A DNA stretch of 224 bases from Escherichia coli. GTDB taxonomy: Bacteria; Pseudomonadota; Gammaproteobacteria; Enterobacterales; Enterobacteriaceae. The stretch lies in assembly GCF_003334355.1 (NCBI RefSeq), contig NZ_QOWP01000120.1; one strand, given 5' to 3'. Below are positions 1-148 of the stretch, one piece after another. The position numbers and the translations under genes are program-made. A model generated the notes under the pieces. It was not told the origin of the DNA, searched no databases, and saw only the letters and a list, made by a program, of their open reading frames with translations. Numbering within the stretch: the first letter of the stretch is position 1; every line of letters starts with the position of its first letter.

Positions 1-16
1 AATTTGAGAGACTCAC

Positions 17-34
17 GAACAACTTTCGTTGTTC
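17..34 (-). other. Small spacer hairpin with GAAA (GNRA) tetraloop
   Basis: Perfect inverted repeat gaacaac (17-23) and gttgttc (28-34) around a 4-nt loop. In minus-sense RNA this is GAACAAC-GAAA-GUUGUUC, a 7-bp stem with a GNRA tetraloop. No U-tract follows in the transcript (next bases are GUGAGUCUCUCAAAUU), so it is not an intrinsic terminator. Confidence 0.5.
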
Positions 35-60
35 AGTGTTTCAATTTTCAGCTTGATCCA

Positions 61-75
61 GATTTTTAAAGAGCA
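61..75 (-). promoter_or_regulatory. Spacer boxA antitermination element (binding site for the NusB/NusE-containing rrn antitermination complex)
   Basis: Minus-strand sequence TGCTCTTTAAAAATC (+ strand gatttttaaagagca) contains the boxA core GCTCTTTAA, close to the rrn leader boxA TGCTCTTTAACAA. It sits immediately 3' of a hairpin in the transcript, the boxB-then-boxA order described for rrn leader and spacer regions. Confidence 0.7.
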
Positions 76-76
76 A

Positions 77-114
77 ATATCTCAAACATCACCCGAAGAT
101 GAGTTTTGAGATAT
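77..114 (-). promoter_or_regulatory. boxB-like stem-loop with UUCG tetraloop, upstream of spacer boxA in the transcript
   Basis: Minus-sense RNA AUAUCUCAAA-AC-UCAUC-UUCG-GGUGA-UG-UUUGAGAUAU. Outer stem is 10 perfect bp (77-86 with 105-114). Inner stem is 5 bp including one G-U wobble that pairs only in minus-sense RNA (it would be a C/A mismatch in plus sense). The stem closes a C(UUCG)G tetraloop (+ strand cgaa at 94-97). Confidence 0.6.
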
Positions 115-148
115 TAAGGTCGGCGACTTTCACTCACAAACCAGCAAG

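Follow-up and report, generated by a model that had tools for sequence, protein, structure and literature searches.

A covarying hairpin in the 16S-23S spacer of Escherichia coli as a probable side arm of the 23S leader-trailer helix

The inverted repeat at positions 17-34 of a 224-nt stretch of Escherichia coli DNA (the whole stretch is called the window here) specifies a hairpin in the leader of pre-23S rRNA. Comparative evidence, namely covariation and homologous inserts in other genera, rather than the sequence of the hairpin alone, shows that it is a genuine RNA helix. The hairpin probably branches off the helix between the 23S leader and trailer at a three-way junction, where it would have a structural role, and it would be discarded with the StyR-44 fragment.

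Read as its reverse complement, the window is the part of an E. coli rrn 16S-23S spacer that extends from tRNA-Glu to the 23S gene, as established by a minus-strand tRNA-Glu, a StyR-44 match and identity to an rrnG locus. A complete tRNA-Glu(UUC), the spacer tRNA gene, was found at positions 149-224 of the minus strand by ARAGORN and Rfam. On the same strand, positions 1-71 matched StyR-44 (Rfam RF01830) with 81.5 bits and E = 3.5e-13 (gathering score 54); the match covers model positions 1-71 of 107 and is cut off by the end of the window. By megablast, the window was matched in 5,425 of 5,426 complete E. coli genomes, with a median of 7 places per genome, and the best place per record was at least 99% identical to the window in 1,510 records. 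A place with 100% identity was the kgtP-rrnG-clpB locus of O157:H7 PV15-279, in which the operon is on the minus strand, as it is in the window. The window also aligned with all seven MG1655 spacers and, with the tRNA-Glu and StyR-44 matches, this upholds the attribution to an E. coli rrn spacer made in an earlier note on this DNA. The E. coli rrn spacer had been sequenced by the early 1980s. An antisense RNA from the plus strand, with a UUUC loop, was unsupported, as all recognisable gene and RNA matches were on the minus strand.

The E. coli genome searches also returned 10 spacer matches on plasmid-annotated records and up to 17 places in some genomes; in the XL1-Blue and XL10-Gold assemblies there were 8-9 places, and close to the end of the record the match was split in two. 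The plasmid and extra places may be assembly artefacts or additional partial rrn copies. Elsewhere in the window, a 7-nt perfect inverted repeat (CTTTCAC / GTGAAAG, positions 127-133 and 186-192) would join the spacer downstream of tRNA-Glu to the anticodon arm, and is probably a chance match.

On the plus strand, positions 17-34 read GAACAAC TTTC GTTGTTC, with arms of 7 nt each (17-23 and 28-34) that are 100% complementary. The RNA sense is the minus strand (34..17), GAACAAC-GAAA-GUUGUUC, which gives seven Watson-Crick pairs and a GAAA loop closed by C-G, and thus a sequence of the GNRA type (G-N-R-A closed by a base pair). The perfect 7-bp stem and GNRA tetraloop recorded in the earlier note were confirmed. 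The 18-mer RNA folded as (((((((....))))))) with -7.4 kcal/mol, an ensemble frequency of 0.96 and z = -4.8, and 2 of 200 shuffles of it folded equally well. The helix is longer than was reported, since CAC/GUG adds 3 bp with one bulged U, extending it to positions 14-38 of the minus strand. Rfam, the fold and covariation all delineate this bulged stem-loop (CAC-U-GAACAAC-GAAA-GUUGUUC-GUG; 10 bp, 25 nt, dG -10.3 kcal/mol). The hairpin is located 29 nt 3' of the spacer boxA and 62-79 nt before mature 23S.

Taken from the sequence alone, a hairpin of this kind was moderately unlikely and only suggestive, because a perfect 7-bp stem with a 4-nt loop was present in 353 of 20,000 dinucleotide shuffles of the window (1.8%); with loops of 3-8 nt allowed, a perfect 7-bp stem was present in 8%. 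These frequencies would leave room for a chance inverted repeat in AT-rich spacer DNA that forms no RNA structure, but such an explanation is contradicted by compensatory changes at seven of nine pairs and by the formation of a hairpin at the same position in all 20 distinct homologous inserts, and we regard it as extremely improbable. The comparative evidence is as follows.

Homologues were collected by two pattern scans. A 15-base pattern applied to genome contigs was too short, and most of its 120 loci were chance matches, with approximately 23 true homologues from 8 taxa; a 24-base pattern applied to metagenome contigs gave 31 further loci. True homologues were found in E. albertii, Enterobacter cloacae, Photorhabdus, Xenorhabdus, Serratia and further Enterobacterales contigs. 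The sequences flanking the hairpin were conserved across genera, the 5' flank being ...AAUCUGGA(U/A)CAAGCUGAAAAUUGAAA(C) and the 3' flank (G)AGUCUCUCA. Enclosed by GAAA(C) and (G)AGUCUCUCA were 20 distinct inserts of 22-60 nt, every one of which folded as a single flank-based hairpin. Their stems ranged from 6 bp upward to a maximum of approximately 20 pairs in branched inserts of 51-60 nt, with z = -2.5 to -5.5.

The hairpins themselves differed widely. In E. albertii (GAAUAGUC GAAA GAUUAUUC) several stem pairs were changed and one was added relative to E. coli, and GAAA was retained. The Enterobacter-type hairpin was ACACACA GCUCA UGUGUGU; in one variant, ACACACU GUUCA AGUGUGU, the closing pair was changed from A-U to U-A, and a further variant was ACACAUC UUAAU GGUGUGU. 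Photorhabdus and Xenorhabdus each had a 12-bp stem, with the loops ACCGA and GAAU, respectively, and Serratia-like arms measured 57-60 nt. The pair counts were made from per-sequence folds and an alignment designated A3. A MAFFT alignment (A2) was left out of these counts; it shifts the Escherichia stems by one column relative to the Enterobacter-type stems, because their bulged U is on opposite strands. In A3, which still underestimates apex pairing, 88.9% of the cells of nine hairpin pairs were standard-paired, compared with 66.7 +/- 2.8% in shuffles, and 88.9% was reached in none of 500 shuffles. Double-sided changes occurred in seven of the nine pairs, and the covariation score of the hairpin was 0.627, against 0.233 when shuffled and at most 0.114 with slid partners. 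The co-variation of stem positions, which the earlier note had proposed as a check, was therefore present across Enterobacterales. By these comparisons, the stem is a selected RNA structure that is kept by compensatory change across Enterobacterales, and the sequence, length and loop of the hairpin are free to vary.

Larger inserts were seen at the same site. In Serratia oryzae and Enterobacterales contigs (loci L057, L131, L138 and L132), branched or extended arms of 51-60 nt replace the 25-nt stem-loop and have a common internal CUCCGUA motif. The hairpin site behaves like a leader expansion segment. In the Arsenophonus endosymbiont of Aleurodicus floccissimus (L113), approximately 170 nt separate the conserved GCUGAAAA from the beginning of 23S; this endosymbiont retains boxA and the AAUCUGGAACAAGCUG segment and has a long unrelated insert in place of the hairpin and the UCUCUCA segment. 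In another locus (L139), UCUCUCA and 23S are separated by an insert of more than 150 nt.

The loop was less conserved than the ability to pair. Loops beyond Escherichia were GCUCA, GUUAA, GUCAA, GUUCA, UUAAU, GUAAA, ACCGA and GAAU, mostly unrelated pentaloops. Among the sampled genera, the GNRA loop was restricted to Escherichia (E. coli and E. albertii), and the pattern expected of a conserved motif was not found. On the other check proposed in the earlier note, whether the loop stays GNRA, the loop did so within Escherichia, where it is GAAA or GAGA, and did not past the genus, where GNRA gives way mostly to unrelated 5-nt loops. It is unlikely, in our estimate, that the tetraloop itself is functional, as a motif docking with a receptor in nascent 23S or the leader or as a protein site, with selection allowing GAAA to become GAGA. 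All the E. coli variants seen, as well as E. albertii, do keep GNRA (GAAA or GAGA) on a stable stem, and E. albertii altered several stem pairs and added one while keeping GAAA. However, loops differ outside Escherichia, some lineages have an expanded hairpin of 50-60 nt, no candidate receptor or protein was identified, and Escherichia is too shallow to separate selection from shared ancestry. The hairpin resembles GNRA tetraloop hairpins in its GAAA or GAGA loop closed by C-G (or U.G) and its regular A-form stem, and differs from them in that it gave no sign of a receptor contact and the motif was unconserved outside Escherichia.

Within E. coli, three forms of the hairpin were present among the seven MG1655 spacers, which were retrieved and aligned (alignment A1). 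The copies rrnA, rrnC, rrnD and rrnE have the same hairpin as the window, GAACAAC GAAA GUUGUUC. In rrnB a loop A is changed to G (GAACAAC GAGA GUUGUUC), and in rrnH and rrnG the closing C-G pair becomes U.G (GAACAAU GAAA GUUGUUC). No other variation was seen among the seven K-12 copies from boxA to approximately 20 nt beyond the hairpin. The copies are thus not all identical, and the sole stem change, C to U in rrnH and rrnG, still pairs as a U.G wobble, so that neither of the outcomes named in the earlier note as evidence against its proposal was observed. The GAAA/GAGA and C-G/U.G differences leave the fold intact.

The frequency of each form was counted by exact matching of 67 nt centred on the hairpin in 5,432 E. 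coli records. The C/GAAA form, which is that of the window, was present in 4,764 of the records, the GAGA form in 3,863 and the U.G form in 2,237. A tentative statement in the earlier note that one rrn copy has GAGA proved correct, as K-12 rrnB has it, and the GAGA copy of O157:H7 PV15-279 is located between murI and murB and is likewise rrnB. The suggestion that GAAA is a copy-specific variant was not sustained, given that the window carries the majority allele (six of the seven K-12 copies and the 4,764 records above). As for the difference being a paralog-distinguishing one that keeps the stem and alters only a loop base, the rrnB stem is indeed unchanged, but GAGA is too widespread and is found on several haplotypes. 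In E. coli-like metagenome contigs it was joined to at least 5 different downstream spacer haplotypes, including the short K-12 rrnG/rrnD type, which fits gene conversion between copies. The GAGA site is evidently an old, common polymorphism that has moved between copies and is rrnB-associated in two distant strains, and the GAAA/GAGA difference looks like a neutral variant shifted by gene conversion. The A/G site of the loop and the C/U site next to it offer simple markers for rrn-copy typing and for tracing gene conversion.

Other parts of the leader also varied between copies. A second leader hairpin nearer 23S (A1 columns 234-250) had a long form (CGAUGAUGAAUCG...) in K-12 rrnA, rrnB, rrnC, rrnE and rrnH and a short form (CUCUGAAGUG) in K-12 rrnD and rrnG; in the E. 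coli-like contigs, the long and short forms combined freely with the GAAA, GAGA and U.G alleles. The best rrn copy of strain 7CC (mink, China), which is labelled E. coli, had the E. albertii-type hairpin GAAUAGUC GAAA GAUUAUUC (NZ_CM137006.1, 2161540-2161908, locus L162, locus positions 172-198). It was the only one of the 5,432 records whose best place had less than 95% identity, and it may be misassigned or a divergent lineage.

As a structure the hairpin is known, since the Rfam RF01830 consensus already includes it as its central stem-loop. The stem-loop at 14-38 corresponds to the <<<-<<<<<<<____>>>>>>>>>> stretch of that model, and all 10 model pairs of the central stem-loop were standard in E. 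coli and E. albertii, with an NC line free of 'v' marks. In MG1655 rrnB, the StyR-44 match was full-length (122.9 bits), began within boxA and stopped 8 nt short of the annotated 23S start. Its end is presumably near the RNase III cut site in the 23S leader. StyR-44 was found in all seven MG1655 spacers, between the last spacer tRNA and 23S, and also in the rrnG and rrnB loci of O157:H7. The hairpin studied here therefore has the locus of StyR-44, the leader upstream of 23S in every rrn operon, and the same central stem-loop, whereas the E. coli stem and its GNRA loop differ from the StyR-44 consensus (gcAcagc uAAa gcugUgc).

StyR-44 was described as Salmonella Typhi npcRNA 44 and cloned as a 109-nt RNA (Chinni et al. 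2010; PMC2943607). It was northern-positive in S. Typhi and E. coli, with a level that changes with growth phase (PMC2943607), and as sYJ118 in Salmonella it was induced by tigecycline and ampicillin (PMC3511261). These reports, together with the 81.5 bits scored by the window on the Rfam model, would be accommodated if StyR-44 were a trans-acting small RNA with the hairpin as its core, folded locally as in the Rfam consensus, whose outer helix, GCUGAAAAUU/AAUUUUCGC, closes over the hairpin. However, its discoverers allowed that it is possibly a mere metastable processing intermediate (PMC2943607), the tigecycline paper also raised the possibility of a by-product (PMC3511261), and no target or phenotype was found in the literature examined. 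The outer helix itself also argues against this reading. It can form in Enterobacteriaceae, where both strands are invariant (the window ends before the 3' strand is complete), but it had zero covariation and every departure was a broken pair. It was broken in Photorhabdus and Xenorhabdus, in which the 3' strand is absent. Its 5' strand is, moreover, fully complementary to the 23S trailer, and the comparative counts favour trailer pairing of this strand instead. A small-RNA function for the hairpin is accordingly given a low probability, similar to that of a function residing in the tetraloop.

The position of the hairpin near boxA raises a role in the control of transcription, either as a second boxB-like element of a nut-like site or as a pause or termination hairpin for RNA polymerase. 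The spacer boxA (UGCUCUUUAAAAA, positions 63-75, minus strand) was read from the sequence and is invariant in the seven K-12 copies. It is the NusB/NusE site of the second rrn antitermination element (PMC6614797, PMC10250234). The hairpin lies downstream of it, and nut-like sites contain a hairpin (PMC6614797), so that it shares with the boxB of rrn and lambda the character of a short hairpin near boxA in an antiterminated transcript. However, the order in rrn is boxB, boxA, boxC from 5' to 3' (PMC10250234), and identity with boxB was rejected because the hairpin is 3' of boxA, the wrong side for rrn boxB. That position is already filled by a separate element at 76-115 (minus strand), a long boxB-like hairpin that precedes boxA, has C(UUCG)G at its apex and was defined by sequence and fold. 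In addition, boxB has been reported to be dispensable for rrn antitermination (PMC6614797). An intrinsic terminator was also rejected, as there are only 2 G-C pairs in the core stem, the 3' flank is GUGAGUCUCUCAAAUU, the stem is followed by no U-tract, and the scan of the window gave 0 terminator-like sites; neither promoter nor terminator sites were found by that scan. Control of transcription is consequently a very improbable role for this hairpin, more so than either of the two functions discussed above.

The apex of the boxB-like hairpin varied between operons. The C(UUCG)G apex was shared by the window and K-12 rrnB, rrnC and rrnE (A1 columns 110-148), and the rrnG locus of O157:H7 also had the rrnB-type apex. 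In K-12 rrnG the apex was CAGACUGUUAAGUCUUG, different yet self-complementary, which makes it a second structure-preserving, operon-specific variant.

The conserved sequences on either side of the hairpin point to its probable setting, as a side arm of the leader-trailer helix. By cofold and RNAduplex, a 22-nt leader segment, AAUCUGGAUCAAGCUGAAAAUU (positions 43-64, minus strand), was predicted to form a helix with GAUUUUCAGCCUGAUACAGAUU in the distal 23S-5S trailer. The conserved leader UCUCUCA (positions 5-11, minus strand), which lies between the hairpin and 23S, was predicted by cofold and RNAalifold to pair with the trailer UGAGAGA. The latter adjoins GAUUUUCAGCCUGAUACAGAUU, and the trailer sequence complementary to the two leader segments is thus uninterrupted. 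The GAAA linker at positions 39-42 (minus strand), which joins the trailer-pairing strand to the hairpin, is conserved across genera, was unpaired in the cofolds and is the predicted single-stranded part of the junction.

Minimum-energy cofolds of leader and trailer shared one architecture across 7 operon types, which came from Escherichia, Enterobacter-like contigs and Photorhabdus (3 or more genera), with energies of -82 to -117 kcal/mol. The helix ran along the trailer strand almost without a break, from the 23S termini to a point just past boxA, and two hairpin branches left it on the leader side, the first of which was the 14-38 hairpin. RNAalifold predicted the same junction architecture on 13 sequences. 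The distal duplex had -20 to -23 kcal/mol by RNAduplex, with z of -4.3 to -6.6 versus shuffled trailers, in 16 of 16 leader/trailer pairs, including Xenorhabdus. In the 16 pairs of the distal helix, a structure derived from the same sequences that were used for its pair counts, 99% of cells were paired, against 23-50% with slid partners. Changes consisted of one U-A to A-U swap, seen in three Morganellaceae sequences, which may represent one evolutionary event, and of wobble changes in three pairs. The remaining pairs had no covariation, 10 being invariant and 2 being off by a single unpaired cell. The placement of the hairpin at this predicted junction is thus supported, mainly by conservation and thermodynamics. 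The searchable literature yielded no structure-probing or mutational data for the hairpin.

A difference between trailers was observed in O157:H7 PV15-279 (L129, L161), which had GAUUUUCGGCC compared with GAUUUUCAGCC in K-12 rrnB and other E. coli-like trailers. This change would convert a predicted leader-trailer U-A pair to U.G; it is one-sided, and the long-range pairing is kept.

In the full precursor, then, the conserved leader segments that flank the hairpin would pair with one contiguous 23S-5S trailer stretch, and the hairpin would be a leader-side branch, at a three-way junction, of a helix that reaches from the 23S ends to a point immediately past boxA. This branch would have a structural role: a fast-folding local stem could take up surplus leader nucleotides and bring the two trailer-pairing segments side by side, and sequence-specific reading of the loop would be unnecessary. 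We infer from this arrangement that the hairpin organises the junction. RNase III cutting approximately 8 nt before 23S would then release the hairpin with the excised leader fragment, which would be detected as StyR-44. The local alternative, the outer helix GCUGAAAAUU/AAUUUUCGC, takes as its 5' strand the one predicted to pair with the trailer, and could form before the trailer is made approximately 3 kb later. The hairpin may also be a tolerated insertion whose sole requirement is self-pairing, given that any stem from 6 bp upward, to a maximum of approximately 20 pairs, fills this position across genera.

Leader-trailer helices of 16S and 23S are generally important (PMC10250234, PMC11404451) and have been reported to be near-universal (PMC11404451). 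In the 16S case, boxC follows just after the leader boxA, and it is the structure of the helix and not its sequence that matters (Warner et al. 2023; PMC10250234). The arrangement predicted here is similar to that of 16S and other pre-rRNA leader-trailer helices, in that a leader strand after boxA pairs with a trailer made kilobases later. Bacterial pre-rRNA leader-trailer helices also contain the RNase III site and have local leader hairpins branching off (PMC10250234; Gemler et al. 2024, PMC11404451). In contrast to the 16S case, the version here is that of 23S, and its distal part and branch hairpin are not described in PMC10250234 or PMC11404451.

A stronger form of the junction proposal is that the hairpin is a required arm of the three-way junction, and that the pre-23S helix starts 1-2 nt after boxA, copying the 16S arrangement. 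The antitermination complex would hold the leader strand by the RNA exit channel until the trailer emerges, and the hairpin, perhaps with GCUGAAAAUU/AAUUUUCGC, would prevent mispairing of the leader during transcription of approximately 3 kb of 23S. We consider this stronger form possible but doubtful, and less probable than a structural side arm. If it were true, deletion of the hairpin or unpairing of its stem would measurably impair 23S processing or 50S assembly.

The finding as first given matters little: the E. coli rrn spacer has long been known, the stem-loop is in a curated Rfam family and the loop variant is seemingly neutral. What is modestly new is that the hairpin is placed here within a 23S leader-trailer helix extended as far as the spacer boxA. 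To our knowledge, the formation of leader-trailer helices during transcription has been worked out for 16S and not for 23S. As the hairpin sits between two leader segments that apparently pair with the 23S trailer, it is a convenient, sequence-tolerant handle for studying the co-transcriptional formation of the 23S leader-trailer helix.
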